From a virus (lineage: Duplodnaviria; Caudoviricetes), in IMG/VR virus record IMGVR_UViG_2772190672_000001, positions 1-64,000 of that record: a stretch of DNA of 64,000 bases, one strand, 5' to 3'. This document shows, piece by piece, positions 19,197-63,464 of this stretch. The translations under genes were made by a program, and so were the position numbers. The stretch's first letter is position 1. The number at the start of each line of letters is the position of its first letter. A model generated the notes under the pieces. The model was not told the origin of the DNA. It worked only from the letters and a program-made list of their open reading frames with translations, and searched no databases.

Positions 19197-19210
19197 GGGT
19201 GGCCTCCAGG

Positions 19211-21139: not shown

Positions 21140-21173
21140 GGGGCGCTCCTGGCTCGATGCGAGGGAGGAGACG

Positions 21174-21208: not shown

Positions 21209-21225
21209 GGTGGTTACGGCCGCCG

Positions 21226-22013: not shown

Positions 22014-22040
22014 GGGGAGACCTCCGAGAGGGGTGAGGGG

Positions 22041-25326: not shown

Positions 25327-25367
25327 CAGCGCCTCCTGGTCGGCGGTCTGGGGAAGGGGGACGGCCA

Positions 25368-28300
25368 TCAGCGGTACGTCCAGTTCAGGAGGTAGCTCGC
25401 TGCGGCCGTTGCCCCGGCGAAGGAGGCCGCGGCGAGGGCGGTGTCACTGTCCTGGGCGACGGACCACGTCATCGTGACCCCGGCCGGGACCGGGACGGCC
25501 GCGCCGTCCGACATGGTGACGTTGACCGCGCCGGCGAGCACGGTGAGGCTGACGCTCTGGACGCCGGGGAAGCTGCTCGCGATGTTTTGCGCCGCGGTTC
25601 CGGTCACCGCCCGTACGCCGGTGCTCAGCGGCCTCGGCAGCAGCTCTGCCGCAGTGCAGTCGACTGGCGCGGCCGGCGTGTACGGCTGGGTGAGGTCACC
25701 GTCGAGGAAGGTACCCAGCAGGGTCGGGGCGGCGCCGTTGCACGGGTCGACGGCCCACAGCTCGGTGTACTGGACGTCGCCGACGCCGTCGCCGGTGGTG
25801 TCATCGCAGCCGCACCGTTCCACCACCTGCTTGGCGCACGACTTGCTGCTGCCTGCCTCTCCGCCGCACGGCGCCAGGTGCCAGCCCTCCGGGATGGCGT
25901 CCTGACGCGCCCCGTCCTCGTCCAGGTAGTAGATCGTGCCGTCGCAGCAGATCATCCGCGTCCACGAGCGGGTCTCGGGAATGACCTCGTACGTGACCTT
26001 GAGGTGCACCATCAGGCCGGAGCCGCCGCCGACGGTCTCCTCCACGTCGAGGTAGAGGAAGTTCCGCCCGGCCTGGGCGCCCGGGATGGTGGCGGGACCG
26101 AAGGTGTACGTCGTCCCGTTGTGCGTGGCCGTCGCCGGGAGGCTCTGCCAGGCACCGCCGTTGAGCCGGAACGCCCTGCCGATCTGGTCGGCGTTGAGTA
26201 CGGTGGCCTGAATCTTGATCGTCGCGGGGTCGGCGTTGTCCGGCAGGTCGAAGAACGCGCGCGGGAACCAGTGGGCGTTGAGGAGCGACGGCCCCTCATT
26301 CGGCCTGGCCGGGCTCGACTGCGCCGAGGCGCCGGACGGGTGCGGCGAGACCCACCAGGCGGGGCGGGCGGTGTCGGAGTCCACGACCGACCAGGCCGTC
26401 GAGTACTGGAACTCGTACATGTCGTACCAGGGCGGGTTGGCCACGCTCAGGTTCGGCGTCCACTTCCACACCGGATCCACCGAGTTGTCGTTGAGGTGAC
26501 CCTCATTCGAGATGAACTCGACGCTCTGGGTGGTGTCCTGCTGGATGCAGACCTGGACCGGCTGGCAGCAGTCGTCATCGCACGTGACGGTCGCGTTCGC
26601 CGGGAGCGGCGCCCGTGTGTCCGCGTCAACGGTGGTGATGGCGCCCTCGCAGTCCGCCAGCTTGAGCGCCGTCCACGGCACCGTTTCGGCGACGACGCCG
26701 CACAGCCGCTCCATGTGCGGGGTCGGCGGGTCAGCGAAGTTCGTCGTCGTGACGGCCAGCCGGACCGGCGTGGAGAACTCGATCCTGAAGCGGTCCCCCG
26801 GGCTCACGGCTACCTGTGTGCCCTGGTTGATCACGCCGTCACCGGCAAGCACGCGCAGCGTGACCGTGACGCCGTTGAACGTGGCCGTGCCGACGTAGGG
26901 CGGGGGCGTCGGCGTCGGGGAGGCCGGCATGGCCGGCGTGAAGGCGGCGAAGGAGATAGCGCCGCCGAGGTCCGGGCTGGTGAACCCCATGTCGGACGGG
27001 GTGCCCGTGCTCGACTGGTAGGTGCCTTCCCAGGAGGTGACGCGGTCGCCGAAGGTGTATGTCGGGTTCGTGGCGGTGCCGAGCCAGCAGTCTGGGAAGC
27101 CGGTGTTGGCCGTGTCGAAGCCGGTCATGGTGTCGGGCAGGGAGTAGACGCACTCGCCCATGACCGTTGTGTCGCACTGTCGCGGTTCGGACGAGTCGCA
27201 CACCCCGGCGGTCCCGGCCACCGTGTAGGGGGTGATGCCGTCCAGGAGGGTGTCCGTGACGGTGGCGGTGCCGTCACAGGAGCGGCAGATCTGCCGCAGG
27301 AACGGGCCTCCGGGCACCACGGACACGGCGCCGGCCCAGTAGGTGAAGAACGTCCCGCACGAGGCGATGCGGCTGTTTGCTGCCGGGGCGGTGGTGAACG
27401 TGGTGACCGGGCCGGCGGTACGGAACCGGGCGCTGCTCGCGATCCGCGGGTCCGTGACGTACGAGCACGGGTCGATCGGTGCGGCGTCCGAGGTGCGGGT
27501 GAGGACTCCGGTGGTCTCGTCGTAGGTGTAGCCGTCCGGCAGGCTCACGACGTCCAGCCCTGGCGGGAGCTGCGCGTGGCTGATCGTCGGGTCCGGCGCG
27601 AAGTAGCGGACGTACACGGAGAATTCGACGGTCGAGGGCCGGGAGAACGTCCACTTCGTCGGCGCGGTGACGGAGTGGGGGAAGGAGTGCAGCCCCCACC
27701 AGGAGCCGTCTGTGTTGCTGAGGTTGGCCGCCATCGCCGTGTTGTTCGTGGCGCCGGTGGACGTCCAGCCGACGCCGTTGGACAGGGTGCCGGATGCGGC
27801 GGTCCCGCTGATGGTGACGGGTGCGCCGGTGGGCAGGTCGCACAGCACCAGCGTTTCGCAGTCCTTGCACGGCTTGGGCTGACAGACGCCCACGGTGCCC
27901 GTCGGGGTGTACGGGGCGGAGCCGTTGAGAACGTAGTCGGCATGGCCGGTGACAGTGCCAGCCACGTCGCGCTGGTAATCCCGAAGGAACGTCGTCACGC
28001 TGCCGTCCGCCTGGACGTCACACAGGACCGTCAGATCGCGCTCCGGCTGCGGCACGGGCTGGCAGTCGCCCACGGTGCCGGTCGGCGTGTAGGGAGAGCC
28101 GTCCAGGAGGTAGTCGGAGTGCCCGACGATGGCGCCTGTCTCGTCCCGCCGGTAGTCGCGCACCATCTGGGTGACAGTGCCGTCTGCGGCCGTGTCGCAG
28201 AGCTGGACGACGTCCTGTTCCGGCTGCTCGACGCCGACCGGGCAGGTGGTGACGGTTCCGGTCGGCGTGTAGGTGGCGCCGGTGGTGGCATCGACCAGGC

Positions 28301-50493: not shown

Positions 50494-51281
50494 GTCGCTG
50501 ACCTGCTAGGGGCTGGTGGCCATGGTTCGCGACAATGTTGCACCCGAGCTTCGCCGGAGTGCCCCAGTAGCCGTCGTTGTTTCGGCTGGTCCAGTCCGTG
50601 ATGGTTTCCGGGATGAGATCCGCGATGCTGTTCGCAGTCTTCGGTGCAGCAGTTGGATGCAAACTACGCACCCGACCAACTGTCTCGTGTCTCCAAGAAT
50701 TGCGGTAGTCTCGGAAGCACTTCCTGATTACGTCTTCTGAATGCGTAATCCGTGAAACGACCAAGGCCCCGCCCTCCCGTAGGTTGCGACCCTACGGATC
50801 GCGAGGACGAGGCCCTGGCTTGGTGGTGTGAGCCCTGGCCGAGCTGAGTGCTCAGCTGGGGCTCACGCGTTTCACGTACGGTGCTCGATGAGCCACGCGA
50901 CCACGAGGAAGACCTCGCAGCTCGCGCTCACACGCTCCGAGGAGACGTGCGCACGTACGTGTTTCTCCCACCGATCTTTCAGCCACCGAAACAGCTTCAA
51001 GATCGGCTCCCTTCGGCGAAGCCGGGTTTACCCCGGCACCACAAGGGACGCGGTCGCGCCCCCACGTGTCGGGTGCGGTCCGTCATCCCCCTGAAGGAGT
51101 AAGCAGCAATGTACAGCGCGGCCTGGACGAATCCCCAATCTTCGGTGCTCATCCGGAAGTTGCGGCAACAGCCGTTCCATAATCGGATCAAAATCGATCA
51201 GAATTGGCTACATATCGAAAGCTCTAGTCTCGGTTGCCGGCTTCCATCGATCCAGGCCGGCTCGTTACCGGGCATGCGAAC

Positions 51282-51314
51282 GCCCCCTGCCCCGGAAGCG
51301 GGGTCACAGGGGGC
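51282..51314 (-). terminator. Hairpin immediately downstream of the tRNA
   Basis: GCCCCCTG...CAGGGGGC arms with inner CCCCG/CGGGG. Confidence 0.55.
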
Positions 51315-51322
51315 GAACCATA

Positions 51323-51399
51323 TGGACCGCGAGGGAGGACTCGAACCTCCAACCTTCACCTTCGAGAGGTGATGCTCCATCCAATCGAGCTGCTCGCGG
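51323..51399 (-). tRNA. Atypical tRNA-Arg(UCG) with encoded CCA
   Basis: CCGCGAG/CTCGCGG acceptor; GCTC/GAGC D-stem; TCACC-TCTCGAA-GGTGA anticodon arm; GGAGG-TTCGAGT-CCTCC T-arm; ends TCCA. Confidence 0.8.
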
Positions 51400-51531
51400 A
51401 CAGTGGGGGGATGGTAGCAGTTCAACCGGTCTGCCGGGTATGCCCTCTTGGCGGCCTCTGGGCGGCGGTGTGACCGAGGGCCGGGGGAAGGTGATGCTCC
51501 CCCGACCCTCGGTCGGTGCGGTGCCCCGCGG

Positions 51532-52044
51532 TCAGAACAGGGTCTGTGGTGGCGTGGCCGTCGGCTTCGGGGCCGTCGGCCGGCGCGTTCCGCCCGGGTT
51601 GGGGAGTTCGAGGACCTCCCAGCCGTAGCGCTGCTGGAACCACTCGGCCGCCCACTGCCGATGGCAGGCTTCCCCGGCGTTGACGTTCTCGAAGCACATC
51701 AGGACGCCGGGCAGGTTCGGGTACGACTGGGCGACCTCGTCCAGCGCGGCCAGGATTTCGGCCTCGTGGCGTACGAGCCGCTGCCGGTACACCCGGCGCT
51801 CGATGGGGATGTTGTCGATGCCCTTGAGGGGCGGTTTCATCAGCTCCCACGGGGCTAGGGCCTTGATCTGGATGAAGTTGTAGCGGACGAAGCGGGGCCG
51901 TCCCACGGTGATCCCGATAGGGATTCCGGCGTCTTCCTGCCAGTTCTGGTAACGGCTGGTCACCAGCTCCAGCGGCTGGGCGACTTGGATGCGTTCCACG
52001 TCCGGTTCGGGCCCGTCGAGGCCGAGGCTCTTGAGGTCGATCAC
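51532..52044 (-). CDS. DUF488-like protein
   Basis: TS.Y, LAP, LMCFE.....CHR...AEW motifs. Confidence 0.6.
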   Translation of the reverse strand: MIDLKSLGLDGPEPDVERIQVAQPLELVTSRYQNWQEDAGIPIGITVGRPRFVRYNFIQIKALAPWELMKPPLKGIDNIPIERRVYRQRLVRHEAEILAALDEVAQSYPNLPGVLMCFENVNAGEACHRQWAAEWFQQRYGWEVLELPNPGGTRRPTAPKPTATPPQTLF

Positions 52045-52084
52045 TGGTCTTGCCTTTCTGTGGTGGTGTGTCCTGCTTTCATTC

Positions 52085-52132
52085 TTGACCAACCGGCCGG
52101 GTTTACCCTCGTGTCCCGACTGGCTTGGCCCA
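52085..52132. repeat. Early dyad repeat copy h (degenerate)
   Basis: TTGACC..GGG..CTC..TCCCG..TTGGCC with GGTGGTGTGTC flank. Confidence 0.55.
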
Positions 52133-52169
52133 GGGGCCCCGACTGGTGCGGGGCCCTTGCGCCACTACG

Positions 52170-53333
52170 TCAGGAGGCGCTGGTCTTGGGGGTGTTGGTG
52201 GCCTCCGCCTCGGGGGCGACCCGGAGCGCTCCCGCCAGGACGGTGGCCGCGGTGGCGGCCTTGGCCAGGTTCTGGGCGGCCTTCGTGGCGACCTGCCGCA
52301 GGTGGTCGATCCGCATCTTGTTGCCGGGGATGCCACCGTGCGCCCCGGAGAGGAGGAGCGCCAGCGTGTCGGGATCCAGGTCGGCGATCTCCTGGAGGAT
52401 CTTGCCCGCGTCCTCCAGCCTGCCGATCTTGCCGACGAGCTTCTTGCGGTCGGCCACGATCTGCTCGCGCTTGTCGACGTCCACGGCCAGCTCGGGGAAC
52501 ATGCTGTCGTCGACCTTGTCGGCGCCGGGGGCGTCCTCGGCCAGGACGAACATGACGCTCTGGCTGGCCGCTTCCTGCTCCTCGTTGCGGACCCTCGTGC
52601 AGAACATCTCGGCCTCGCGGGGGCTGTTGAACTGGCCGCGGGTCCAGCGGGCGATGAACGCGTTCTGGTTGGCCGGGCTGATCTGCGAGGCGTACCAGGC
52701 CAGGCCGACCGGCAGGTGGCCCTTGAGCAGCGCCTCCTGCACGGCGGGCACGAGCTTGAGGAGGGAGAGTCGCAGGTCCACGTAGTTCCAGCTCTTGCCG
52801 ACCCGCTTGGCGACCGCTTCGGGGGTCAGCCCGAAGTCCATCAGCTTCTTGAAGGCCCGCGCCTCCTCCAGCGGGGTCATGTTCTCGCGGCTGAGGTTCT
52901 CCGCCACCGACCGCTCGAAGCCCTCCAGCGTCTCCGAGCCGCCCTCCAGGCCGTGGGTCACCATCGCCGGGATGTCGGCCTTGCCTGCGATCTGGGAGGC
53001 CCTCCACCGGCGCTCGCCCGCGATCAGCATGTACCGCTTGGTGCCCCGGATGTAGCGGAGGCTGACCGCCTGCTGGACGCCGATCTCCTTGATGCTGGCG
53101 GCCAGCTCCTCCAGCTTCTCCTGGTCGAAGACTTCGCGAGGCTGGTTCGGGTCGCGGTCGATCCGGTCGAGCGGGACCGTCTTGAACGCCGTCTTGACCG
53201 CGGCCGGCGCCGCCGGGGCCGGGGCCGCCGCCTTCTTGGTCGGGGCCTTGCGGGTGGTCGGCTTCTTCGCCGCGTCCTTATTGGCGGGGGCCTTCGCGGT
53301 GGCCTTCTTGATGGTGGCGGTGGTGGCGGTCAT
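52170..53333 (-). CDS. parB: ParB/RepB/Spo0J family protein
   Basis: QPR..FD...L.ELA.SI...GV.Q, IAGERRWRA, ENL.RE.M.PLEEA, HTH; Lys/Ala-rich N-tail. Confidence 0.9.
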   Translation of the reverse strand: MTATTATIKKATAKAPANKDAAKKPTTRKAPTKKAAAPAPAAPAAVKTAFKTVPLDRIDRDPNQPREVFDQEKLEELAASIKEIGVQQAVSLRYIRGTKRYMLIAGERRWRASQIAGKADIPAMVTHGLEGGSETLEGFERSVAENLSRENMTPLEEARAFKKLMDFGLTPEAVAKRVGKSWNYVDLRLSLLKLVPAVQEALLKGHLPVGLAWYASQISPANQNAFIARWTRGQFNSPREAEMFCTRVRNEEQEAASQSVMFVLAEDAPGADKVDDSMFPELAVDVDKREQIVADRKKLVGKIGRLEDAGKILQEIADLDPDTLALLLSGAHGGIPGNKMRIDHLRQVATKAAQNLAKAATAATVLAGALRVAPEAEATNTPKTSAS

Positions 53334-53380
53334 GGCGCCCTCCGTGGTGAGTGGATGGGTGGTGTGTCGCGCAGTCATCA

Positions 53381-53455
53381 TTGACCAAAGCTCTCGGGGT
53401 AACCTCGGTGTGCCAATGGATTTGGCCGTACAGTTGGCAAGCGTGCCCAGGTCAG
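53381..53455. repeat. Early dyad repeat copy g
   Basis: TTGACCAAA..CGGGGTAAC-CTC..; ends CAGGTCAG. Confidence 0.65.
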
Positions 53456-53501
53456 AGCCCTGCCGGAGGCCCACGCCGAGAGGGCGCGGGCCGGGTGTTC
53501 G

Positions 53502-53816
53502 CTAGATGAAGGGGGCCAGCGCCAGGGCCCCGCGGGTGATGACGTCGTCGCCGCCACCCCGGAGGAGGGCGCGGGTGGCAGCCATCAGGTCGCGGCGGGC
53601 CTGCTCGCGGTGCTGGATGACCCTCTGGCGGAGCGTCTCACCGGAGGCGATCAGCTTCTCGTGGTCCAGCTCGCCCTTGCGGACGCTCCGGCGGATCTCG
53701 ATCGCCCATTCCACCTGCTCGGTGCGGAGCAGTCGCTTCACGAGGTCGAGTGCGTCACCCGCGTCGCCCGCGCCGGCGATCAGCTCGATTTCCTCGGTGA
53801 GGGCCGTGATGTCCAT
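53502..53816 (-). CDS. Hypothetical helical protein
   Basis: ATG 53816 with GGGAG RBS after repeat f. Confidence 0.6.
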   Translation of the reverse strand: MDITALTEEIELIAGAGDAGDALDLVKRLLRTEQVEWAIEIRRSVRKGELDHEKLIASGETLRQRVIQHREQARRDLMAATRALLRGGGDDVITRGALALAPFI

Positions 53817-53860
53817 CGCTCGCTCCCTGGGGGGGTTGGTGGTATGTCGTGCATTCATCC

Positions 53861-53936
53861 TTCCGCCAGCCCACCTGGCCAACCTCGTTGTCCCGGTGGA
53901 TTTGGTCAAAGGATCGTCAGGAAACCCGCAGGTCAG
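53861..53936. repeat. Early dyad repeat copy f
   Basis: CAAC-CTC-GTTG core; TTTGGTCAAAGGATCGTCAGGAAA..CAGGTCAG. Confidence 0.7.
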
Positions 53937-54261
53937 CCGGTGGGCGACGGTTGACGTGCACGTGGAGGGTGCCGGGCTCCAGGACGGGTGACGGGTCCCC
54001 GTCGGCCCGCACCAGCTCGGGCCGCAGCTGCTCCAGCCAGGGCCACAGGATGCCGGGGGCGAACGTGACCGCCAGGTGGGTGGCGCCGCCGAGCCGGGCC
54101 GACAGGTCCGCGGCGGTCGTCCTGCGGCGGGGCTCGCGGCGGGGCCTCGCCGTCTGCTGGCGGCCCAGCTCGCCGACCGGCGCGGGCACGAACCGGGGGG
54201 CCAGCGGGGAGACGGGCGCGGCACCGAAGAGGGCGATCTGTCCGGCCGGGGTCTCAGGCAT
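53917..54261 (-). CDS. Hypothetical protein
   Basis: Overlaps upstream stop; begins MPETPAGQIALF. Confidence 0.4.
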   Translation of the reverse strand: MPETPAGQIALFGAAPVSPLAPRFVPAPVGELGRQQTARPRREPRRRTTAADLSARLGGATHLAVTFAPGILWPWLEQLRPELVRADGDPSPVLEPGTLHVHVNRRPPADLRVS

Positions 54262-54985
54262 CGGCGGGCTCCAGCGTGGCGAACAGCTCGGCCTGTACCG
54301 GCTCGGGCGCCGCCGCTGCGGCGGGCCGGGCATGGACCAGGTGCTCGGCGACCGTCCAGTCCACCCACTCCCATCCCGGGAGCAGTGGGCGGCCGTCCCG
54401 GGCGGGGCCGCACAGCGTCGTCATCCCGGCCGCGCGGGCGGCCTGGCGGGCAGCGGTTCCTTCGAGGATGAGGTGATCGGCCAGCACCTGGTGCACGGTG
54501 CCGTCGCAGTGCAGCCAGACCTCGCACTTCGGGGTGCCGAGGGCGGTCACCATGGCGAAGCGGTGGATGTCGCCCCAGCCGGGGTGTAGGCCACCTGGTT
54601 TCACCCAGACCCACGTGCCGGGTGCGATGTCGCCGGGTCCGGCCGGTGTGTACTGGTAGGGCGGCTCCTGCCGACGGCGCCGACTGGGCTTGGGCGGGTA
54701 GAAGTGGCTCGGCGGGTAGCTGGCGGGGCGGGCTGCGCTCAGTTCGGCGGCTTGGGCCATGACAACGTCGGCGGCGGTGTAGCAGCTGGGGCCGACGTGC
54801 CAGTTCCGGGGGCCGCGTTTCTCCCACCAGGTGGGGGCGCCGCACTGGCAGCGGCCTTCGGTGAGGTGCTCGGCGGCGGTCGCGCAGGGCCAGGCGGTGC
54901 CACAGGACCGGCAAGTGGGCCCGTCGTCCAGGCCGCGGGGAAGGTGGGCGTCGGGGAGGCGGATGATGAGCGGCTTCCAGTCCAT
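54254..54985 (-). CDS. Hypothetical Zn-binding protein
   Basis: C..C...WPC and CQCG..H...C motifs; GAAAGG RBS. Confidence 0.6.
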   Translation of the reverse strand: MDWKPLIIRLPDAHLPRGLDDGPTCRSCGTAWPCATAAEHLTEGRCQCGAPTWWEKRGPRNWHVGPSCYTAADVVMAQAAELSAARPASYPPSHFYPPKPSRRRRQEPPYQYTPAGPGDIAPGTWVWVKPGGLHPGWGDIHRFAMVTALGTPKCEVWLHCDGTVHQVLADHLILEGTAARQAARAAGMTTLCGPARDGRPLLPGWEWVDWTVAEHLVHARPAAAAAPEPVQAELFATLEPADA

Positions 54986-55067
54986 CGGTGCGCCCTTTCT
55001 TGGGTGTCGGGTGGAGGATGAGAGCGGGCCGGGGAGCGCTGCCTGCTCCCCGGCCCGCCGGCGGCTG

Positions 55068-56294
55068 CTACTTGGCCAGGACGTGGACGTTGCTGCTGGC
55101 CGTCTTGGGGCCGGTGCAGATGTACTCGCCCCACTCGTCGTGCAGCCGGTTGCCGGTGCCGTCCCAGATCAGCGGCTTCTCGCACTGGGCGCACGGGCCG
55201 GCGTCCTCCCCCGGCGTCCCGTGCGGCCGGGCCTCGTCTGCGGGGGTGGTGGTGTCGGCGTGCATCTCCTCGAGGAAGTCGACCGCTGCCGCGAGGTTGT
55301 TCGCGCCGACCACGGTGACGTCCTCGTTCTGGCTGGCCTCGTCGAAGTCGTCGGCGGCCACGATGAACTTCCGGTATCCGGCGGTCTGGGCGGTGCGGAT
55401 GAGGGCGGTGACGTCCTCCACGTAGCGGACCCGGCCGTCGAGCCCCAGCTCGCCGATCAGGACCACCCCGTTCAGTGCGGCCGGGTCGAAGGCGCCCGCG
55501 GCGGCGAGTGCGGTGCAGGCGAACGCCAGGTCGGAGGCGGAGCCGAAGCGCAGCGCCGGCCACTCGGCTGCGATGTCCATCGCGCCGGGCTCCCATCCCA
55601 GGTCGCTGTTGACGATGGCCGCGCGGATGCGATCGCGGGTCTCGCGGGCCTGGTCGCGGGTTTCGCGGACGAAGGGGGAGGCCGGGTTGTCGGTGATCTG
55701 GATGGCCGCGGTGGCGCCCCGGTGGTACTCGGCGCGGATCGAGGCCATGCCCCTGGGGGTGGGGAACGAGGTGGCCGCGGTGCGCCTGCCGGTGACGTCG
55801 ACCGTGGGCAGGGTCACCGACCGGTACGGCTCGCCTTCGGCTGCGACCTCCCAGCCGGCCGCGAGGAGGCCGCCGAAGGGGAACGCCTCCGCGAGCAGGT
55901 GGTCGATGTCGTCGGCGTAGCTGTCGGTGAGGGGGCTGGTCGAGAGGTACCTGTCGTCGGTGTGGAAGAGGGTCTTGCCGTTGCCGTCGCGGACCTCGTG
56001 CAGCTCGCATGCTTCGGTGTCTGCGGTGATCGTGGTCGCGTCGGGCAGGGCCTCGCGGATGAGGCGGGCGACGTATTCGAGGGTCCTGCGGTGGAGGACG
56101 GTGCGGGCGCGCGCGGCGTTGTCCAGCGCGTTGTTGGCGGCGTGGGAGAGGGCGGCGGTCGTGGAGTCGGTCCGGGTGGTGTGGGCCGAGTGGTCGGTGG
56201 CCAGGACCGGTGGACGGGCGGGGATGCCGGTGATCGACTCGCTCGGCGTGTAGCTCGGCGGCTGGCGGTCGGTCATGCGGGGCTCGTAGCTCAT
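55068..56294 (-). CDS. ComM/YifB N-terminal (Lon-like) domain fusion without AAA+ domain
   Basis: ETRDRIRAAIVNS, GS..DL..A...LAA, LIGELGLDGRVR; C-terminal CxxC. Confidence 0.75.
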   Translation of the reverse strand: MSYEPRMTDRQPPSYTPSESITGIPARPPVLATDHSAHTTRTDSTTAALSHAANNALDNAARARTVLHRRTLEYVARLIREALPDATTITADTEACELHEVRDGNGKTLFHTDDRYLSTSPLTDSYADDIDHLLAEAFPFGGLLAAGWEVAAEGEPYRSVTLPTVDVTGRRTAATSFPTPRGMASIRAEYHRGATAAIQITDNPASPFVRETRDQARETRDRIRAAIVNSDLGWEPGAMDIAAEWPALRFGSASDLAFACTALAAAGAFDPAALNGVVLIGELGLDGRVRYVEDVTALIRTAQTAGYRKFIVAADDFDEASQNEDVTVVGANNLAAAVDFLEEMHADTTTPADEARPHGTPGEDAGPCAQCEKPLIWDGTGNRLHDEWGEYICTGPKTASSNVHVLAK

Positions 56295-56327
56295 GGTCGA
56301 TTCCCTCGGTGGGTTGTGGAGTGCCGG

Positions 56328-56416
56328 GGTGGCGGCTCCGGGGCGGGCGGCGCGCACCGGGCCGAGGCCCGTCGCGCTGCCCGCTCCGGGGGCGGCCGGC
56401 TGGCCGCCCGGCCGGG
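56328..56416. repeat. GC-rich intergenic repeat B, copy 1
   Basis: GGTGGCGG.TCCGGGGCGGGCGGCGCGCACCGGGC..GGCCCGTCGCGC, near-identical to 57571-57658. Confidence 0.7.
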
Positions 56417-56635
56417 TCAGAAGCCGAACTCGCAGTACTCGCAGAACGCCGTCCGCACCTCCCCCTTGTTGTTGGTGAGCGCCACCAGCTCCGACCTGCA
56501 GTCCTCGCACTCGCCGAGGCCCGTTGCCGGGATGGGGGTGGTGACCGGCTTTGCGGGGGTGAGGACGGGCGCGGGGCTGGCGTTGACCGTCGCGGTGACC
56601 GAGCCGGTGCTGTTGCTGATGAGGAGGATCGCCAT
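56417..56635 (-). CDS. Small Zn-ribbon protein
   Basis: CEDC...CEYC; GGAG RBS. Confidence 0.6.
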   Translation of the reverse strand: MAILLISNSTGSVTATVNASPAPVLTPAKPVTTPIPATGLGECEDCRSELVALTNNKGEVRTAFCEYCEFGF

Positions 56636-56678
56636 CGTGTGCTCCCTGGAGGTGAGGTGGTGTGTCGCACTTCATTCA

Positions 56679-56753
56679 TTGACCAAACCTCCCGGTTTAC
56701 TCTCCCTGCACCGGTGGGTTTGGTCAAAGAAGCGGCAGGAAAGCCGCTGGTCA
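56679..56753. repeat. Early dyad repeat copy e
   Basis: Perfect outer arms TTGACCAAACC/GGTTTGGTCAA; GAAAGCCGCTGGTCA tail. Confidence 0.75.
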
Positions 56754-57551
56754 GGCCCGGCCCGCCAGCTCCGCCAGGGCCCGGAGGGCGGTAACCGCCG
56801 CAGCGAGGTCTCGGACGGCGATCACGTTGAGATCGAGGCCGAGGGCGCGGACGTCGTGAGCCTGACGGGCGGGGACGAGGACGGTGCGGTGGCCGTTGAT
56901 GTGCGCGGTGCGGGCCGCGTCGGTGACGCCGGGGAGACCGTTGATCGCCCCGTCGAAGCCGCGCAGCTCGCCGAGGAGCACGACCTGGCCGAGCACGCGG
57001 GAGTCGAGCTGGCCGCTGGCGGCGAGGACGGTGCAGGCTGTCGCGAGGTCGAGCGTGCTGGTCACGTTATGGTGGTCGTTGATCCGGACCGTCACCGCGC
57101 CGTCGGGGAAGGTGAAGCCGCTGCTGACGATCGCGCCGTGGATCCGCCCTTCCGGCGCGGTGTCGAAGGTGTGCCATCCGGTGATCCGGAAGCTGTCCGG
57201 GCCGGGCCAGACCGTGGCCTCGACCAGCACCATCCCGGTGCTGGCGGCGCCGTTGGTGTGGGCGGAGGTGGCGGCCAGGTTGCTGAGGTTGCTGGTCGGG
57301 GCGAGCGCGTAGTCGGGGTTGCCGGATGCCCGCCGCAGGCCGTCGATGAAGCTGTCGAGGGCCTCGGCCCCTGTGGCGCCCTGGATGATGTCCACCTGGC
57401 CGAGGGCGTCGCCCGCTTCGACGTCCAGCTCCTCGACCGCCCTGCGCCTGCGAATGAGGTCGGCCGGCGCGGGGGCGATGTCCCACAGGGTGTAGCTGGC
57501 GGCGTCCCTGCGGCCGACGATGATGAACTCGGGGGTGCGGGTGGTGATCAT
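56751..57551 (-). CDS. Second ComM/YifB N-terminal domain fusion without AAA+ domain
   Basis: RI.GAIVSSGFTFP, LDLA.AC.VLAA, LLGEL..DG....PGV. Confidence 0.7.
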   Translation of the reverse strand: MITTRTPEFIIVGRRDAASYTLWDIAPAPADLIRRRRAVEELDVEAGDALGQVDIIQGATGAEALDSFIDGLRRASGNPDYALAPTSNLSNLAATSAHTNGAASTGMVLVEATVWPGPDSFRITGWHTFDTAPEGRIHGAIVSSGFTFPDGAVTVRINDHHNVTSTLDLATACTVLAASGQLDSRVLGQVVLLGELRGFDGAINGLPGVTDAARTAHINGHRTVLVPARQAHDVRALGLDLNVIAVRDLAAAVTALRALAELAGRA

Positions 57552-57570
57552 GGCTTTCTCCCTGGGGTGA

Positions 57571-57658
57571 GGTGGCGGTTCCGGGGCGGGCGGCGCGCAC
57601 CGGGCTCGGGGCCCGTCGCGCCGCCTGCGCCGGAGGCAGCCGCCCGGCCGCCCGGCCG
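57571..57658. repeat. GC-rich intergenic repeat B, copy 2
   Basis: Near-identical to 56328-56416. Confidence 0.7.
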
Positions 57659-57931
57659 TCAGGACTTGCGGCGGTTGATGGTGTGGAGGGTGACGCCCTC
57701 GGCGGCCAGGGCCCGGCAGATGTTGCCGCGCACCCACCCGCCCCAGCCGTCCGACTCGTACTCGGCGAGGAACTGGCGCCGCTTCGGGTGCGCCGCGTTC
57801 GGGCTGAACGTGGCAGCCAGCTCGTAGGCCAGGGTCCGGGTGTTCCACGGGCCCTCGAACAGCCCGTCGGAGATGTCGCTGTCCTCCAGGTCCCAGTACA
57901 GATGGAGGAGGGGGGTCCGGGTCTGGTCCAT
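57659..57931 (-). CDS. Hypothetical protein
   Basis: 90 aa; GGAG RBS after repeat d. Confidence 0.6.
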   Translation of the reverse strand: MDQTRTPLLHLYWDLEDSDISDGLFEGPWNTRTLAYELAATFSPNAAHPKRRQFLAEYESDGWGGWVRGNICRALAAEGVTLHTINRRKS

Positions 57932-57979
57932 GTCTGGCGCTCCGTCCCTGATGGGTGGTGGTGTGTCCTGCCTTCATCT

Positions 57980-58053
57980 TTCCGCAAACAAGCCGGGATA
58001 ACCTCGCTATCCCGGCTGAATTGGTCAAGGATTGTCAGGAAAGCCGCTGGTCA
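57980..58053. repeat. Early dyad repeat copy d
   Basis: GCCGGGATAAC-CTC-GCTATCCCGGC; TTGGTCAA; GAAAGCCGCTGGTCA. Confidence 0.75.
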
Positions 58054-59847
58054 GGCGGCCAGGTCGTAGCGGTCGATCTCCTCGCCGGTGATGCACTCGG
58101 CGAGCATGCAGATCAGGACCTCCGAGACGTTCGGGGTGACCGCGTTGCCCAGCTGGCGCACCCGGTCGCGCTTCGAGCCCAGCACCACGTAGTCGTCGGC
58201 GAAGGCCATCGCGCGCTGGATCTCGTGCGGCTGGAGCATCCGGAACAGGACGTCTTCGATCTTGATGTCCCCCTGGACCAGGGCGAAGCGGTCACGGGTG
58301 GAGATCGCGCCGACGGGCTCGCTGACCGGGCGCGGGGTCCCGTTGCCGTAGTACGGGGCCAGGAAGGGTTCCCAGGTGACGAGGGACTGGTGGCCGGTGG
58401 TGGTGAGGGTCCGCATCGGCTCGGCCAGGTCGGTGCAGTGCTCGCCGCCGTCGCCGGTGGAGCCGTTGTTCCGCATCATCATGCCCGGCATCGGGACCGC
58501 GGCCAGGCCGTGGTGATTGCCGCTGGCGCAGACCGTCGCGAGCGGGTCGCTGATCGCGCGGACGTCGCTGCTGCCGCCCCGGATCTCGGTGATGAACGGC
58601 AGCCACGCGAGCCCGGCCTCGGCCCTGGCGGTCTGGGTCTGCATCGGCCCGTAGACCGTGCGGGCGTTCTTGCCTTCGCGGCCGTCGCACGGGACGAGCA
58701 GCGGCGGTACCGCCAGCGCGTCATTCTCGCGGGTGGTGCGGGTCGGCATCGGGTCGAGGAGGTCGGTGGCCGAGTCCCGCCAGGTGCCGCCGGTGGGCAC
58801 CATCAGCGGGCGGGCGAACTTGTCCAGCCCGGCCTGGATGCGCCGCATCGTCTTCTCGGCCAGCGGGGTCTTGCGGTCGCCGATCCGACCGCCCGCGATC
58901 GACCAGTCGATGGCCGCCGCCGCGGGGAGCGTCTCGGGTTCCACGATCTGGTGGCCACACTTCGTGTTCGGGCACCGGTAGTCGTACTGGCTCTTGTACC
59001 GGCCCATGTCGACGCCGGGCTTCCGGAAGACCTGCCGGGCCTTGACCATCTGGTCGCAGCCGGTGCAGAACGCTGAGGGGGCGAGCCACTTCTCGAAGTT
59101 CGGGGTGCGGCCGAGGCTCTGGTGCCAGTAGACCAGGTAGAGACGGTCGCGGGACTGCGGGGCGCGGTGCACCGAGCGCGGCTCGGCGTGCATCGAGTTC
59201 AGCGCGACCAGCCGGGTCCGGTAGCCCATCTTGTGGAACTCCGCGATCCAGCGGTCCCACTCGGCCCACTGCCGGACGTCGACCACGTTCTCGACCACGC
59301 CCGCCTTGACCAGGCCGCCGCGCTCGATTACGCCTCGCAGGTAGAGCGGGATCTCTTCCATCAGCGCCCGACTGGCCTCATCCTCCGCCGTCGGGCCGCT
59401 GTCCCTCTCGTCCTCCGTCTGGAACTTATCCGCCTCCAGGTCTGCGTACAGGTCGAGCAGGTCGCCCTGGACGGCCTTGGCGAAGTCCCGCTTTTTGCCC
59501 TGGGCAATGCTCCACCGAGTGCACTCGGGCGAGCCCCAGTGGATGTCGGTGATCGGCCAGGCCCAGACCGGGGCCTTGCGGATGTCGCCGATGTAGTGGG
59601 CGACGCCGGGGAAGTTCCGCTCGTGACTCTCGATCGCCCGCCGCCAGTGGTTCGCGGCCCGGGTCACCTTGACGTTCGGGACGGCGTCCGCGCCCTGGGT
59701 GGAGCCACCCGCCCCGCAGAACCAGTCCATGACCGACAGCTCGGTGCCGTCGTGCCTGTACGCCTTGGTTCGCCGGCGCAGGGCGTAGGTCTGGGCCGAG
59801 CTGGAGGCCGAGGCCATCGCGCGGGTGGTGGAGGAGATGTAGGGCAT
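58051..59847 (-). CDS. Orphan DNA (cytosine-5) methyltransferase
   Basis: DWFCGAGG (I), GSPEC (IV), VENV (VI), PQSRDR (VIII), QLGNAV (X). Confidence 0.9.
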   Translation of the reverse strand: MPYISSTTRAMASASSSAQTYALRRRTKAYRHDGTELSVMDWFCGAGGSTQGADAVPNVKVTRAANHWRRAIESHERNFPGVAHYIGDIRKAPVWAWPITDIHWGSPECTRWSIAQGKKRDFAKAVQGDLLDLYADLEADKFQTEDERDSGPTAEDEASRALMEEIPLYLRGVIERGGLVKAGVVENVVDVRQWAEWDRWIAEFHKMGYRTRLVALNSMHAEPRSVHRAPQSRDRLYLVYWHQSLGRTPNFEKWLAPSAFCTGCDQMVKARQVFRKPGVDMGRYKSQYDYRCPNTKCGHQIVEPETLPAAAAIDWSIAGGRIGDRKTPLAEKTMRRIQAGLDKFARPLMVPTGGTWRDSATDLLDPMPTRTTRENDALAVPPLLVPCDGREGKNARTVYGPMQTQTARAEAGLAWLPFITEIRGGSSDVRAISDPLATVCASGNHHGLAAVPMPGMMMRNNGSTGDGGEHCTDLAEPMRTLTTTGHQSLVTWEPFLAPYYGNGTPRPVSEPVGAISTRDRFALVQGDIKIEDVLFRMLQPHEIQRAMAFADDYVVLGSKRDRVRQLGNAVTPNVSEVLICMLAECITGEEIDRYDLAA

Positions 59848-59891
59848 TCGGTCCGTCCCTTCCGGGTGGGTGGGTGTGTCGTCCTCTTTCA

Positions 59892-59966
59892 TTGACCCCA
59901 CCCCTCGGGATAACCTCGTTATCCCGATGGGTTTGGTCAAAGAATCGTCAGTGAAGCCGCGGGTCA
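59892..59966. repeat. Early dyad repeat copy c
   Basis: TTGACC-N8-CGGGATAAC-CTC-GTTATCCCG-N8-GGTCAA. Confidence 0.8.
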
Positions 59967-60848
59967 GATGCCGTCCGGCCGGAACGGGATCAGGGGGAAA
60001 AGGTCCCGGTCGAGCGCGTACCAGCCCCACTCGTGGCCGCCGATGGCGTACCGGCCGTCGGCGTTGGGGTGGAGGACCTCGACCGCCTGCTCGCGCCGCT
60101 CGCCGGCGAGGTGCATCCAGCAGGTGACGATGACGACCGCGTGCCGGGTGCGGTTGACCCTGCCGCTCAGGACGTGAACGGTGTCGATCGAGCCGTGCCC
60201 GTACCTGGCGGCGTCTCGCTGGGTGTCGGCGGCGATCCGGCGGACGGTGCGGAGGTCGAGCCAGGGCCGCACGTAGCCGTCGCGCTGGTCAGCGGGGTCG
60301 ATGAGCGCCGGGTAGTGGTCGCGGTCGTTGGCACACACCAGGACTTCGACCATCGAGCCGGGGGCGGCTTCCGGGGCGGCCGGGCTGGGCGGGTCGAGGG
60401 TGAGGGAGGCGGCCCGCATGAGGTCGAGGGTGAAGGCGGGTCGGCCGTAGCGGTCGGGCAGTTCGTCGCACAGTGGGCGCCAGACACCTCGGGTGTTGTC
60501 GTCCAGGTATGCCGTCCAGCCACTGAGGTCGTGCAGGGCGTTCCCGGCCTCGGTCTGGCCGACGTCGTCGGTGAAGGTGCGCTCGGCGCCGGCCGTCGTC
60601 CAGTAGCGGCCGGTGGGAAACAGCGAGTCCTCGCCTGCGACCAGTTCGAGGCGGGCGGCATCGAAGGGGGCGCCGGGCTGGTGGCCGGTGAGGATGTCGC
60701 GGACGGCCGCGGCGGTGACGACGAGCATGACGCGGCCGAGCTGCTCGTGCGCGGTCTGGTTGTCGTTCAGGGCCTGGTCGACGGCTGCGCCGAGCGCGCT
60801 GCTGGCGGGCAGTTCGTAGGCGGGGCGAGAAGGGGGCTGGCGGTCCAT
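59964..60848 (-). CDS. Hypothetical two-domain protein (domain shared with 61879-62982)
   Basis: G.V.P.......AA.TQ, DTVHV, GRY.IGG.EW.W. Confidence 0.7.
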   Translation of the reverse strand: MDRQPPSRPAYELPASSALGAAVDQALNDNQTAHEQLGRVMLVVTAAAVRDILTGHQPGAPFDAARLELVAGEDSLFPTGRYWTTAGAERTFTDDVGQTEAGNALHDLSGWTAYLDDNTRGVWRPLCDELPDRYGRPAFTLDLMRAASLTLDPPSPAAPEAAPGSMVEVLVCANDRDHYPALIDPADQRDGYVRPWLDLRTVRRIAADTQRDAARYGHGSIDTVHVLSGRVNRTRHAVVIVTCWMHLAGERREQAVEVLHPNADGRYAIGGHEWGWYALDRDLFPLIPFRPDGI

Positions 60849-60891
60849 GCCGGGTCCGTTCTGTGTGTGGTGGGTGTTGCATCCTCGATCA

Positions 60892-60965
60892 TTGACCCCA
60901 CCATCCGGGGTAACCTCGTTACCCCGGCCGATTTGGTCAAAGAAGCGTCAGGAAGTCGCTGGTCA
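60892..60965. repeat. Early dyad repeat copy b
   Basis: TTGACC-N8-CGGGGTAAC-CTC-GTTACCCCG-N8-GGTCAA. Confidence 0.8.
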
Positions 60966-61850
60966 GGCCGTGATGCCGTCGGCCAGGTACGAGCCACCGT
61001 CAGCCACACGCAGGGCGAATACCTCGGCCTTCGGGCCGCGCTCGGCGCGCAGGGCGCCGTGCCAGCGGTATCCGTCGAAGTCGGGCCGTCGGCCGCCTTC
61101 GTTCTGCCAGTGCAGCTGCCATCCGGGCCAACCCGGCTTGCTGGAGTCGCTCAGCCCGCCGGCGAACCCGAGCGAGCAGACGAGCAGCCGCAGCCCGACC
61201 ATGAACGCCTTGGAGTGCATGCGCACCTGGTTCCGCTCACGGTGCGGGGCGCCGTGGACGAGGCCCACGAGGAACGCGATCCGCAGCGTCTCGGGCATCG
61301 TCAGCGCCCAGGCCGGGAAGCGGCGTCCGGCCCCGTACTGGCCGAAGTGCTCGGCGAGCCAGTCGACCAGCTCGGGCCGCAGTGCCGCCGCGGCTGAGCC
61401 CTTGAGCCGGATCATGGCCCCGGCCGTGCGGAAGACGTCCACGGGGTCGGCGTCGGCGAGGGGGGCGGGCAGGTCGGGGATCGCCAGCGGATCCCCGAAG
61501 TGGAGGGGTGAGGCCAGCCGGTGTCGGTCGGTCAGGTCGCGGACCCTGGTCCAGCCCGCAGCTGACAGCTCACCGGCCGGGCCACCGTCCAGCAGGACGG
61601 GCGCGGTTCGCGCGTGGAACGGGTGGTCGGCCGTCGTGACGAGGCCGGTGGCGAGCGTGGCGCAGTGGACGCGGACAGTGTCGGCGATGGCGCTCATAGT
61701 CTCGGTGACCGGCTGCCACCGGCGCTCGTGGGTGAACACCTCATCCCCGGCGGTGACGGTTTCGATGGGGGTGAGGCCGCGCAGAGTCAGGATCATCGTT
61801 CCGGCGGCGAAGCCCTCGGGGGCGGGCTCCAGGGGGGTCTGGTTGCTCAT
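60963..61850 (-). CDS. Stand-alone intein-derived protein (Hint + degenerate LAGLIDADG)
   Basis: Block A GFAAGTMILT.RG, block B TTADHPF, AFLVGL, block F/G VFALRV...SYLADGI. Confidence 0.75.
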   Translation of the reverse strand: MSNQTPLEPAPEGFAAGTMILTLRGLTPIETVTAGDEVFTHERRWQPVTETMSAIADTVRVHCATLATGLVTTADHPFHARTAPVLLDGGPAGELSAAGWTRVRDLTDRHRLASPLHFGDPLAIPDLPAPLADADPVDVFRTAGAMIRLKGSAAAALRPELVDWLAEHFGQYGAGRRFPAWALTMPETLRIAFLVGLVHGAPHRERNQVRMHSKAFMVGLRLLVCSLGFAGGLSDSSKPGWPGWQLHWQNEGGRRPDFDGYRWHGALRAERGPKAEVFALRVADGGSYLADGITA

Positions 61851-61878
61851 GTGGCGTCCTTGTCTCGTCGGGCGGGGG

Positions 61879-62982
61879 TCAGAGGGTGGGGAAGGTGATT
61901 CGGTAGACGTTGGCGGACCGCTCGTCCGGGATGTGCTCCCAGCCGGGTGCCGCCGCCAGGTCGGCCGGCTCGCTGCTGTCGATGGCGTGATGCAGGTAGG
62001 CGTCTGCGGCGCCGAGGGTCTCGGTGTCGAAGACGCCGCCGTCGTCGGCCGTGTCGAGCTCCGTGTCTCCGGCGTAGACCTGGACGATGTGGGGGCGGCC
62101 TTCGTGGATGTCGATCAGCGCCGAGGTCGCCGACGGGGCCAGCCGCCGCAGGGCGGCCGCGGCCGTCCAGCGGGCGATCTCCAGGGGTGCGGTCGGCTGG
62201 TGGTCGCGGGTGAGGCCGCACCAGCACCGCTCGTGCCAGTCGGAGTACCGGCCGCACACGCAGTTCCAGTGGGCGTAGCTCCAGCACCACTCCCAACCGC
62301 CGATGCTGTACCGGCCTTCGTCGTCGGGCTCGATGATGAGGGTGGACTGCTCGGCGCCCTCGTCCTCCATGTACGTCCAGGAGACCCGCAGGACGAACGC
62401 CAGCGGCTTGCCGTCGTGGTCCTTCGCGCCGCAGTCGATGACGTGCACGGTGTCGACGCCGTCGCCGTTGAACTCTTCGGCCAGCTGCTGGGTCTGGGCG
62501 GCCAGTTGGAGGGCGGCGTCCAGGGTGAAGCGGGGCGAGACGAAGCCGTTCCAGAGGTTGTGCGGGTCGACCTTGGCGTCGAGGGGGCCGAGGGTGTCGT
62601 CGATGCAGACCTTGGTGTCGACGGTGCGGAGGCGGGAGGCGATCCGGTAAATCTCGGCCTGCCGGTGCTCCCCCTCCCAGCTGTCGCCGTCGAAGTCGAG
62701 TTCGTCGGCCAGGGTCCGGGAGAGCTGCCGGTAGAGCGCTTTGCGGTGCGGGAGGCTGCCGTCCTCGCGGGCGGCCTGCCATGCCTTCATCCAGGCGTGC
62801 CTGTCGAAGCGGGCGGCGGGCGGCATGCCGGCGGCTGCTTGGAGGCAGACCCTGCGGTCGAGGTGGACGGTGGCGTTGGGGTCGCCGGTGGCCTGCATGG
62901 CGCGGGCCTGGGCGATCCGGGCCACGATGACGAGGGCTGCGGCCAGTTCGGTCTGGGTGACGTCTGGGGTCGTGCTGGTCAT
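61879..62982 (-). CDS. Hypothetical multidomain protein
   Basis: WNGFVSPRF, DTVHV, GRYSIGGWEWCW, CxC..CxC; GAGGT RBS. Confidence 0.7.
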   Translation of the reverse strand: MTSTTPDVTQTELAAALVIVARIAQARAMQATGDPNATVHLDRRVCLQAAAGMPPAARFDRHAWMKAWQAAREDGSLPHRKALYRQLSRTLADELDFDGDSWEGEHRQAEIYRIASRLRTVDTKVCIDDTLGPLDAKVDPHNLWNGFVSPRFTLDAALQLAAQTQQLAEEFNGDGVDTVHVIDCGAKDHDGKPLAFVLRVSWTYMEDEGAEQSTLIIEPDDEGRYSIGGWEWCWSYAHWNCVCGRYSDWHERCWCGLTRDHQPTAPLEIARWTAAAALRRLAPSATSALIDIHEGRPHIVQVYAGDTELDTADDGGVFDTETLGAADAYLHHAIDSSEPADLAAAPGWEHIPDERSANVYRITFPTL

Positions 62983-63049
62983 GACGGTGGTACCTCTCGT
63001 GGGGTGGATGGTGGGGGCTCCGCCGGGCGGGCGGGGCGCCGTGGGTGGT

Positions 63050-63346
63050 TCAGCCGGTGAAGAGGGCCAGCCACTCGTTCGCGCGGGCCGGGAGGCGCGT
63101 GTCCTTGCCCGCCCAGGCCATCTCGTCGTCGATCTGGCGGGCGAGCAGCTCGAACCGCTCGGGGGTGAAGTGCTCGCCCCGCTCCAGCGCCTGGGCCAGG
63201 GAGTGGGCCTTGATGGCGGCCGCCCGCATCGCTTCCTTCTCGCAGCCGAAGCCGAGGAGGTCGGCGCGGGCGCCGGCGACCGTGCCGTAGCCGGTCAGGG
63301 CCACGGCCGTTGCCTGGGCCTCGGTGGTGACGGTGATGGTGGCCAT
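63050..63346 (-). CDS. Hypothetical protein
   Basis: 98 aa; GGAG RBS after repeat a. Confidence 0.6.
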   Translation of the reverse strand: MATITVTTEAQATAVALTGYGTVAGARADLLGFGCEKEAMRAAAIKAHSLAQALERGEHFTPERFELLARQIDDEMAWAGKDTRLPARANEWLALFTG

Positions 63347-63388
63347 GCCGGGCTCCCTGGGTGATGGTGGGTGGTGACACCTTCTTCA

Positions 63389-63464
63389 TTGACCCCACCT
63401 GCCGGGATAACCTCGATATCCCGGTTGATTTGGTCAGGGAATCGACAATGAAGCCGCTGGTTCA
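63389..63464. repeat. Early dyad repeat copy a
   Basis: TTGACC-N8-CGGGATAAC-CTC-GATATCCCG-N8-GGTCAG. Confidence 0.8.

Follow-up and report, generated by a model that had tools for sequence, protein, structure and literature searches.

Repeated intergenic dyad units, candidate promoter and leader elements, in the accessory gene array of a Streptomyces prophage

We analysed the first 64 kb (the window) of the 111,280-bp record IMGVR_UViG_2772190672_000001, classed in IMG/VR as a complete provirus of the Caudoviricetes, and focused on an array of repeated intergenic units of about 120 nt, each built around an imperfect inverted repeat (dyad), in its accessory region. The window has a G+C content of 70%, nearly all of its genes are carried on the minus strand, and the related elements all come from Streptomyces. 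Terminase small- and large-subunit genes occupy 45.7-48.0 kb and a Dam-like/GNAT gene lies at 49.0-50.4 kb, with structural genes below; the array is directly upstream of these packaging genes in the direction of transcription. At the opposite end of the prophage are a tyrosine integrase gene (110.1-110.6 kb) and a divergent pair of helix-turn-helix (HTH) genes (107.9-108.5 kb). The array genes to which a name can be given encode a C5 methyltransferase, a small-domain methyltransferase, a ParB-type protein, two ChlI/Lon-like proteins, a Hint-domain open reading frame (ORF), a PP2C phosphatase, and two DUF3560 proteins, and about two-thirds of the array ORFs have no Pfam or PHROG match. A sequence-only reading of the window had described these genes as early and mostly counter-defence-like or unknown; neither label is established for a cargo that mostly lacks such matches, and a counter-defence role is plausible for the methyltransferases only.

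The same reading had listed eight copies of the dyad, and a repeat search recovers all eight as one family, at the starts given there, in a single orientation and in minus-strand intergenic gaps (Table 1). Only units f, g, and h match a strict 49-bp consensus with three or fewer mismatches, a threshold at which shuffled sequences give no matches; the five more degenerate copies are recovered by nhmmer and a covariance model with E values of 1e-9 to 1e-22. Genome-wide, a profile search detects 14 strong copies from 52.0 to 75.3 kb, every one of them minus-strand, as well as at least one decayed copy at about 76.68 kb. Beyond the window the copies are centred at 64835, 66801, 69976, 71968, 72733, and 75227, and the array, which had been thought to end at 63464, continues to about 76.7 kb, with some 15 units in roughly 25 kb. 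Eleven of the 19 minus-strand TTGACC hexamers in the 111 kb fall within units, which are the main repeated dyad family noted in the genome.

Exact-pattern scans of viral and genome collections, together with a covariance model (R1), place the unit in two other elements only: a 118.9-kb provirus of Streptomyces sp. Act143 (G001/G002; 18 units) and a 118-kb contig of Streptomyces sp. DH12 (G003; 7 units). A sample of 150 further Streptomyces genomes gives no match, the profile search finds no copy in this genome (G000) outside the 25-kb, one-strand stretch, Rfam scores are all far below gathering thresholds, and megablast against a phage collection returns nothing. Given the restriction to three elements, the empty genomes, and the Rfam result, the unit is a lineage-specific phage signal and not a host repeat. 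In the DH12 element the inner dyad has largely decayed, and TTGACCAAA, GGATAA, NANNNT at 17 nt (5/7 units), and TTGGTCAATGATGAAGGTG are kept. A related accessory array, with genes for a C5 methyltransferase, an Mg-chelatase-domain protein, ParB-N proteins, and a 1014-aa ParB, lies at 8000-27000 of the 103-kb circular Streptomyces plasmid pSITFR-21c (NZ_CP134608.1). The gap before the orthologous methyltransferase gene retains a 16-bp hairpin and the ATGATGAA box, and about six other gaps hold a 'B-type' unit, in which a tail and leader like those described here surround a different, CCGGTACC-centred dyad core. Across these lineages, the frame of tail, hairpin, and leader is older than this particular dyad core.

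Homology among copies extends well beyond the dyad to the entire gap of about 120 nt. Read on the gene strand, a unit begins with CTGACCwGCGG, which contains the stop codon, and proceeds through a yTGnCGA box, TTGACCAAA, five variable bases, and CGGGATAAC-GAG-GTTATCCCG to a second variable stretch, GGTCAA, an ATGA(W)GAA box, a C/A-rich tract ending in CACC, a GGGAG-type ribosome-binding site (RBS), and the start codon of the next gene, 88-98 nt past the -35-like hexamer. The tail TGA, which lies 25-27 nt before TTGACC, serves as the stop of the upstream ORF in 9 of 14 units here, 11 of 18 in the Act143 provirus, and 3 of 7 in the DH12 contig (23/39 overall); the five window units for which this arrangement had been noted all show it. 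The dyad had been given a fixed length of 49 bp and in fact measures 48-51 nt. Its central CTC (GAG on the gene strand), described as invariant, is present in 8/8 window copies, whereas over the 39 copies the three positions are G in 90%, A in 79%, and G in 97%. The pattern TTGACC-N17-NANNNT has seven matches in the window against 0.42 expected, and five of the seven are units; the proposed TTGACC-17-GAGnnT arrangement holds in these five, whereas the remaining units deviate (CTGACC, ACGGCC, or TGGGCC in place of TTGACC). The 3' flank of the hairpin is TGATGAAGG, and in one subfamily only, the right arm (GGTGGGG) can form a 5' stem-loop with the leader (CCCACC).

Table 1. Repeat units of the window, in order of transcription, and the hairpin that follows the array.
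Feature	Position	Strand	Stop codon, hexamers, and dyad	Scores	Neighbouring genes and remarks
Unit h	63347-63464	-	TGA 63462-63464 of methyltransferase-like ORF; CTGACC-17-GAGGTT; dyad 63389-63437; leader; RBS	103 bits; fold z -4.1	Next start codon 63346
Unit g	60849-60965	-	Stop 60963-60965 of Hint-domain ORF; TTGACC 60935-60940; GAGGTT 60912-60917; dyad 60892-60940	z -5.1	Compensated GGGGTAAC/GTTACCCC arms; next start 60848
Unit f	59848-59966	-	Stop 59964-59966; TTGACC 59935-59940; 17-nt spacer; GAGGTT 59912-59917; dyad 59892-59940	0 mismatches; 108 bits; -32 kcal/mol; z -6.3	Best copy; predicted driver of C5 cytosine methyltransferase gene 58051-59847 (-)
Unit e	57932-58053	-	Methyltransferase stop 58051-58053; TTGACC 58023-58028; dyad 57980-58028		Right outer arm degenerate, reading GCGGAA; upstream of 90-aa ORF and ChlI/Lon-like ORF
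Unit d	56636-56753	-	Stop 56751-56753; TTGACC 56722-56727; GAGAGT; dyad 56679-56727	z -5.0	Inner arms decayed, outer 10 bp perfect; upstream of 72-aa ORF, ChlI/Lon-like paralogue, and two further ORFs
Unit c	53817-53919	-	Stop of preceding ORF 10 nt before TTGACC, outside tail TGA; dyad 53861-53909	z -1.7	Upstream of 104-aa ORF
Unit b	53334-53504	-	ACGGCC at -35 position; dyad 53381-53429	79 bits; z -1.8	Degenerate; upstream of ParB-type gene 52170-53333
Unit a	52045-52172	-	TGGGCC; GAGGGT; dyad 52085-52132	53 bits; z -2.7	Last, most degenerate window copy; additional GC-rich hairpin in tail; upstream of 170-aa ORF 51532-52044
GC-rich hairpin	51455-51531	-	34-nt arms		Directly after last cassette gene; unlike the unit dyads

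Conservation within the dyad is not symmetric. Over the 39 copies of the three elements, TTGACC carries 10.2 bits and its dyad partner GGTCAA 8.9, the AAA flank 5.5 bits and the opposing TTT 2.4, and GAGGTT 7.8 bits, with 2.3 for its innermost GT against 0.65 for the mirror-image AC. The gene-strand hexamers thus outscore their mirror partners, which argues for selection on the gene-strand reading beyond plain symmetry; the left-hand mirror bases of GAGGTT are nearly unconstrained, and the central GAG places an A on the gene strand only.

Pairing across the dyad is itself under constraint. Six of the eight window dyads fold more stably than their shuffles (z -2.7 to -6.3), in line with the hairpin proposed for them, and two are weak (z about -1.7). 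The stem is nearly constant at about 23 bp with a 3-nt loop, and many copies are weak in absolute terms, at -7 to -15 kcal/mol. Covariation, sought in the larger alignment of 39 units, is evident: 75% of cells are paired, both sides have changed at 14 of the 23 pairs, and doubly changed cells number 53 against 23.9 +/- 4.1 in shuffled alignments (0/500), with all slid registers far lower. That alignment is fitted to the model; the 14 units of this genome, when aligned with MAFFT, show the same pattern. Orthologous units of this genome and the Act143 provirus differ by 28 double changes, of which 12 lead from one pair to another, and the compensatory GGGGTAAC/GTTACCCC change that had been reported is found at 60907-60925. 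Wobble cells show no bias toward an RNA strand (57 G.U versus 49 A.C), and the folding energies of the coding and antisense strands, -21.4 and -19.7 kcal/mol, differ only marginally (p = 0.025).

The late genes (structural, lysis, and packaging) are preceded by another repeated signal, TAnnCT followed after about 9 nt by an element of about 22 nt (CGCCGCTGGTTnTGGGCCGGGC), without a -35 hexamer; copies lie on the minus strand at 2374, 3652, 4575, 11894, 12755, 16883, 21174, 35634, and 50460. It looks like a distinct late promoter or an antitermination-type signal, and its difference from the array unit suggests that the phage may use two promoter classes. At the downstream end of the array, the GC-rich hairpin of Table 1 probably marks the end of array transcription.

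The reading that we favour, tentatively and at just under an even chance, is that each unit is a self-contained expression unit consisting of a host-sigma-type promoter and a leader, with the dyad serving as operator or insulator. The unit would open with the TGA of the upstream gene in the conserved tail; host RNA polymerase of the principal-sigma type would then read TTGACC, 17 nt, and GAGGTT as a promoter, with a predicted transcription start site within the CCCGG immediately past the -10, and the leader of about 60 nt would run through the ATGA(W)GAA box, C/A-rich tract, and RBS to the start codon. The dyad around the -35, spacer, and -10 would be a second, separable layer, most likely a binding site through which a symmetric phage regulator would control every cassette at once; alternatively, or in addition, it may fold into a hairpin in read-through RNA and so insulate cassettes from their neighbours. 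The consensus of the Streptomyces principal sigma factor is TTGACN/TAGRRT, and GAGGTT, which retains A at -11 and T at -7, is closer to TAGRRT than to TATAAT. The phage yielded neither a sigma-70 region 2 nor a region 4 domain, and no T7-type polymerase was matched (a search whose control was likewise empty), so that host polymerase is the likely user of the units. The match of TTGACC to the -35 consensus, asymmetric conservation, the missing sigma factor, the separate late signal, and the closing hairpin together make a host-polymerase promoter with leader the best single reading. Also in its favour are the number of copies, the excess of TTGACC-N17-NANNNT, the constrained pairing, and the DH12 units, which retain the sequence blocks after decay of the inner dyad. 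The promoter/operator idea of the sequence-only reading therefore gains from the near-invariant TTGACC, the gene-strand-only GAGnnT, the asymmetry, the fixed distance to RBS and start, and the lack of an encoded sigma factor, and loses from the non-canonical -10 and from a distant relative that keeps the hairpin and not the -35.

Several further observations weigh against it. GAGGTT is identical to TATAAT at only 2/6 positions, a strict E. coli-style sigma-70 scan calls nothing at the units, and the -11 A is lost in 5 of the 18 Act143 units, where the centre is GCG or GTG. In the methyltransferase gap of pSITFR-21c the outer arms read TTTCCC/GGGAAA, a compensated change that abolishes the -35, and the majority of the 80-160-nt gaps of that plasmid hold just perfect GC-rich hairpins. 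Neither the 5' tail nor the ATGA(W)GAA box is accounted for by the promoter reading, a compensatory change inside the 'variable' N5-N8 stretch is atypical of a plain protein operator, and the operators of the immunity region are unrelated to the dyad, so that the obvious repressor is not its binder. Other ways of reading the signals were tried and rejected. An upstream ORF or N-terminal extension starting at the ATG of the box is in frame in only about 45% of units, and in the DH12 contig the frame stops after 3-4 codons; an alternative -10 in the ATGA(W)GAA box gives no consistent hexamer, its -7 T being A in 6 of 14 units here; and hexamers and spacing do not, on inspection, fit a SigB-type or extracytoplasmic-function (ECF) promoter. 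Nor do the units look like intrinsic terminators: the scan calls a terminator-like site on the gene strand at none of them, and the hairpin is followed by TGATGAAGG without a U-tract. Hairpins lacking a U-tract reportedly serve actinobacterial polymerase poorly as intrinsic terminators (PMC3993855).

Mapped by protein family, the three arrays are collinear. The Act143 provirus has three extra units with their genes, the DH12 contig lacks about 11 families and many units, and the differences include single genes inserted immediately upstream of a unit tail. Tandem paralogues comprise two cassettes of a small ORF with a ChlI/Lon-like ORF, ParB-HTH paralogues, and the two DUF3560 proteins. The former cassettes, at 55068-56635 and 56751-57931, share a second intergenic repeat of 52 nt (56363-56414 and 57607-57658; 85% identical), which indicates that a tandem cassette duplication took in the unit. 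About four of the seven breakpoints between this genome and the Act143 provirus fall at unit edges and the rest in genes or at microhomology; one junction is a 'mini-unit' (TGACC, C/A-rich leader, and RBS), and another insertion lies between 12-nt direct repeats. Orthologous units have diverged by about 23%, as have their flanks, and in 10 of 14 cases the best match of a unit is its orthologue, on which ground concerted evolution is rejected. These data support cassette duplication and loss helped by the repeated homology of the recurring 120 nt, as proposed for the PeSL elements of T4-type phages. The exchange of cassettes at the repeats, as first proposed, has in its favour cassette-sized gains and losses, tandem duplications, and the breakpoints at unit edges; it is weakened by the other breakpoints, the closeness of orthologous units, and, by the criterion set in the sequence-only reading, the fixed gene order, and among the three elements we see no evidence for site-specific recombination or gene-order shuffling.

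Three kinds of mechanism compete: a promoter with control dyad, an RNA hairpin, and a protein site. Units without a promoter might be intercistronic processing or stability elements in long polycistronic transcripts, the main rival account, which we consider unlikely. The 23-bp imperfect hairpin and the A/U-rich single strand that follows it (AAUGAUGAA) would then be an RNase III or RNase E site like those of the T7 early region; the upstream message would keep a 3' hairpin as protection, the downstream message would gain a defined 5' leader, and TTGACC would be kept merely as the hairpin base. Such a role is consistent with the fixed distance from stop codon to hairpin, the near-constant stem and loop with their favourable z scores in six of the eight window copies, the compensatory change that preserves pairing, and the slightly more stable fold of the coding strand; in addition, pSITFR-21c has a hairpin in nearly all gaps, with one orthologous copy that has hairpin and box and no TTGACC. 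Selection on one RNA strand, however, should favour G.U over A.C, the DH12 units have mostly lost the hairpin yet retain TTGACCAAA and the box, the left arm and GAGGTT are better conserved than their pairing partners, and Rfam offers no match. The balanced wobble counts, the near-equal folds of the two strands, and the decay of the DH12 dyads thus argue against a purely RNA-level hairpin. The balanced counts would instead match a two-strand constraint, such as supercoil-extruded cruciform or hairpin promoters of the N4 or Frpo type with the -11 A in the 3-nt loop, and the A/T-rich centre between G/C clamps, with GAG setting an A at the tip, would suit this very improbable alternative. Against it, no N4- or T7-type polymerase was found (again with an empty search control), the element is an integrated double-stranded DNA prophage, many copies fold poorly, and a direct reading of the single-stranded template of gene polarity gives CTCGTT at the -10 position, with no A at -11; the Frpo/single-stranded-DNA promoters that the sequence-only reading had invoked, hairpins that rebuild -35 and -10 in transferred single-stranded DNA and send transcription toward the genes, are accordingly disfavoured. 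A view of the units as site-specific recombination sites of the integron attC type, or as selfish repeats of the repetitive extragenic palindrome (REP) or miniature inverted-repeat transposable element (MITE) type, with no role in expression, is extremely improbable. The stop codon inside the repeat, the imperfect palindromes with variable centres, the uniform orientation, and the cassette-sized indels between relatives all recall such sites, but the AAC/GTT boxes adjoin the loop and not the outer ends, the sole recombinase found is the ordinary tyrosine integrase beside the immunity region at the far prophage end, gene order is collinear, and the breakpoints are heterogeneous; a REP- or MITE-like repeat would not be expected to be absent from the 150 other genomes and from the rest of this one.

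An improbable reading in which the dyads are protein sites turns on the orphan ParB/KorB/Noc-type protein of 387 aa encoded within the array. This protein and its HTH-only paralogues would bind multi-box sites composed of TGAC(C/G) heptamers (tail, outer arms) and GGGATAA/TTATCCC (inner arms); by binding or sliding, ParB would keep the region silent in the lysogen until entry or induction released it. The protein has the N-terminal domain and HTH of a true ParB homologue (E = 1e-29 to ParB structures and 2e-15 to KorB), smaller HTH_ParB-only paralogues occur in all three elements (here at 64367-64762 of the record), the genome lacks a ParA-type ATPase as well as any parS or Noc-binding site (NBS) within 2-3 mismatches, and among the repeated dyad families noted in the genome the units are the main one. 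Sites of the ParB/Noc family are palindromes of 16 or 14 bp whose half-sites abut, whereas those of the units face outward 5 bp apart; the units have no sequence similarity to parS, the protein is tied to them by co-location alone, and covariation in the variable stretch is unexpected under base-specific recognition. The ParB family is the only named candidate binder. More specifically, and with decidedly low probability, the dyads may be loading or operator sites of an orphan CTP-type ParB/KorB-like protein and its HTH-only paralogues; if so, one clamp-type regulator would silence some 15 promoters in the lysogen and free them together at entry or induction, a phage counterpart of KorB- or CUP-style zygotic induction, and the same units would double as homology for cassette duplication and loss. 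Two other binders were rejected. The immunity repressor has its own 16-bp operators, which differ, and GGGATAAC and TTGACCAAA are absent at 107.9-108.5 kb; a Reg576-like ribbon-helix-helix (RHH) repressor has no counterpart by RHH_1 search of the genome, and ten small ORFs give no Pfam hint. The inner arm TTATCCC (59918-59924, with equivalents in other units) is identical to the experimentally defined operator box of Reg576, an RHH repressor that controls establishment genes of Bacillus plasmid p576 by zygotic induction (PMC6294495), an identity that is perhaps coincidental.

Some features nearby complete the description. Beyond the last cassette about 850 bp (50680-51531) show no coding signal; a tRNA-Arg(TCG) gene lies in this stretch at 51323-51399 on the minus strand, and the stretch, just upstream of the packaging genes, could also house a cos or pac site. 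The Hint-domain ORF (60963-61850) contains only the first 40 or so residues of the intein-type domain, and no extein is recognisable by Pfam or PHROG. Between the divergent HTH_31 genes, at 107,990-108,340 of the record, are four copies of a 16-bp palindrome, CTTGCGYGnRCGCAAG, which together with the HTH_31 pair form a classical immunity switch to which the cassette dyads are unrelated; the rightward side of this region bears TTGACCTGCGG, an 11-mer identical to the unit tail.

The closest known counterparts are the PeSLs of T4-type phages (PMC2839356, PMC4122927), repeated composite elements that fill the space from an upstream stop to a downstream ATG, combine a host-sigma-type promoter (putative here) with a stem-loop in a region of small ORFans, and are linked to insertions, deletions, and replacements between close relatives. 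The units share the stop-to-start span with them; they have a near-perfect TTGACC with GAGGTT at -10 (found by a relaxed pattern and not by the strict scan), a hairpin, and some of the breakpoints at unit edges. PeSLs have a strong sigma-70 promoter of canonical type, A/T-rich upstream, and the stem-loop (GGGG...CCCC) stands beside it and has been shown to terminate transcription (PMC2839356, PMC4122927), whereas here the dyad encloses both the -35 and the non-canonical -10, the hairpin overlaps the putative promoter and has no U-tract, and host and phage type differ, the element being a temperate, integrating actinobacterial prophage. The ESAS/SAS elements of Cluster K mycobacteriophages (PMC3203893) likewise belong to actinobacteriophages, occur in 11-19 copies of one orientation in the non-structural arm, and place imperfect inverted repeats, the left nearer to consensus, upstream of a start-proximal motif; their function is still unverified (PMC12699233). 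ESAS arms are 17 bp, with a variable spacer of 4-13 bp and a 13-bp GGGATAGGAGCCC at the RBS (PMC3203893), whereas the arms here are 23 bp about a fixed 3-nt centre, with a -35-like hexamer and a stop-codon tail; GGGATAGGAGCCC has one near-match in the 64 kb (1 mismatch, at 55587), outside the units, against 2.2 expected by chance at two or fewer mismatches.

The CUP/ArdK system of IncN plasmids and Reg576 of p576 also place one sequence, there a promoter-operator, before several transcription units, and a small repressor encoded in the region controls establishment and anti-restriction genes that are expressed in a burst on entry (zygotic induction) (PMC6289460, PMC6294495). Those are conjugative plasmids with demonstrated repressors, whereas an RHH protein was not detected here, and Reg576 has boxes repeated directly with 2 bp between them, where those of the units are inverted. 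The early genes of T7 are separated by RNase III sites, conserved imperfect hairpins of about two helical turns in the intergenic gaps. The dyads resemble them in form and in their place between consecutive genes, but the T7 sites have no promoter-like hexamers and act on RNA, whereas the units show no wobble bias and have a decayed hairpin in one relative. Like the units, integron attC sites are imperfect palindromes, variable at the centre, that lie at the 3' end of a cassette ORF, sometimes hold its stop, and form a one-orientation array; the units differ in lacking an IntI/attI/Pc platform, in the placement of the boxes, which in attC (R''/L''...L'/R', with GTTRRRY) stand at the outer ends, in their own expression signals, and in fixed order. 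For the reasons given above, they lack the defining marks of attC, REP/MITE, Frpo/ssi, and parS/Noc sites. If active, they would be compact, portable, and co-regulated expression signals for Streptomyces engineering. The array lends itself well to asking how one phage might coordinate numerous accessory genes with independent promoters, including methyltransferases, a ParB-type protein, and many ORFans, and could reveal whether cassette turnover is driven by units of this kind. Promoter/hairpin units repeated between genes are already known from PeSL and ESAS/SAS, and the array described here is a third, unrelated version, in a large temperate prophage and unusually compact in design, with -35- and -10-like hexamers in one 49-bp dyad, the preceding stop within the unit, and a conserved leader.

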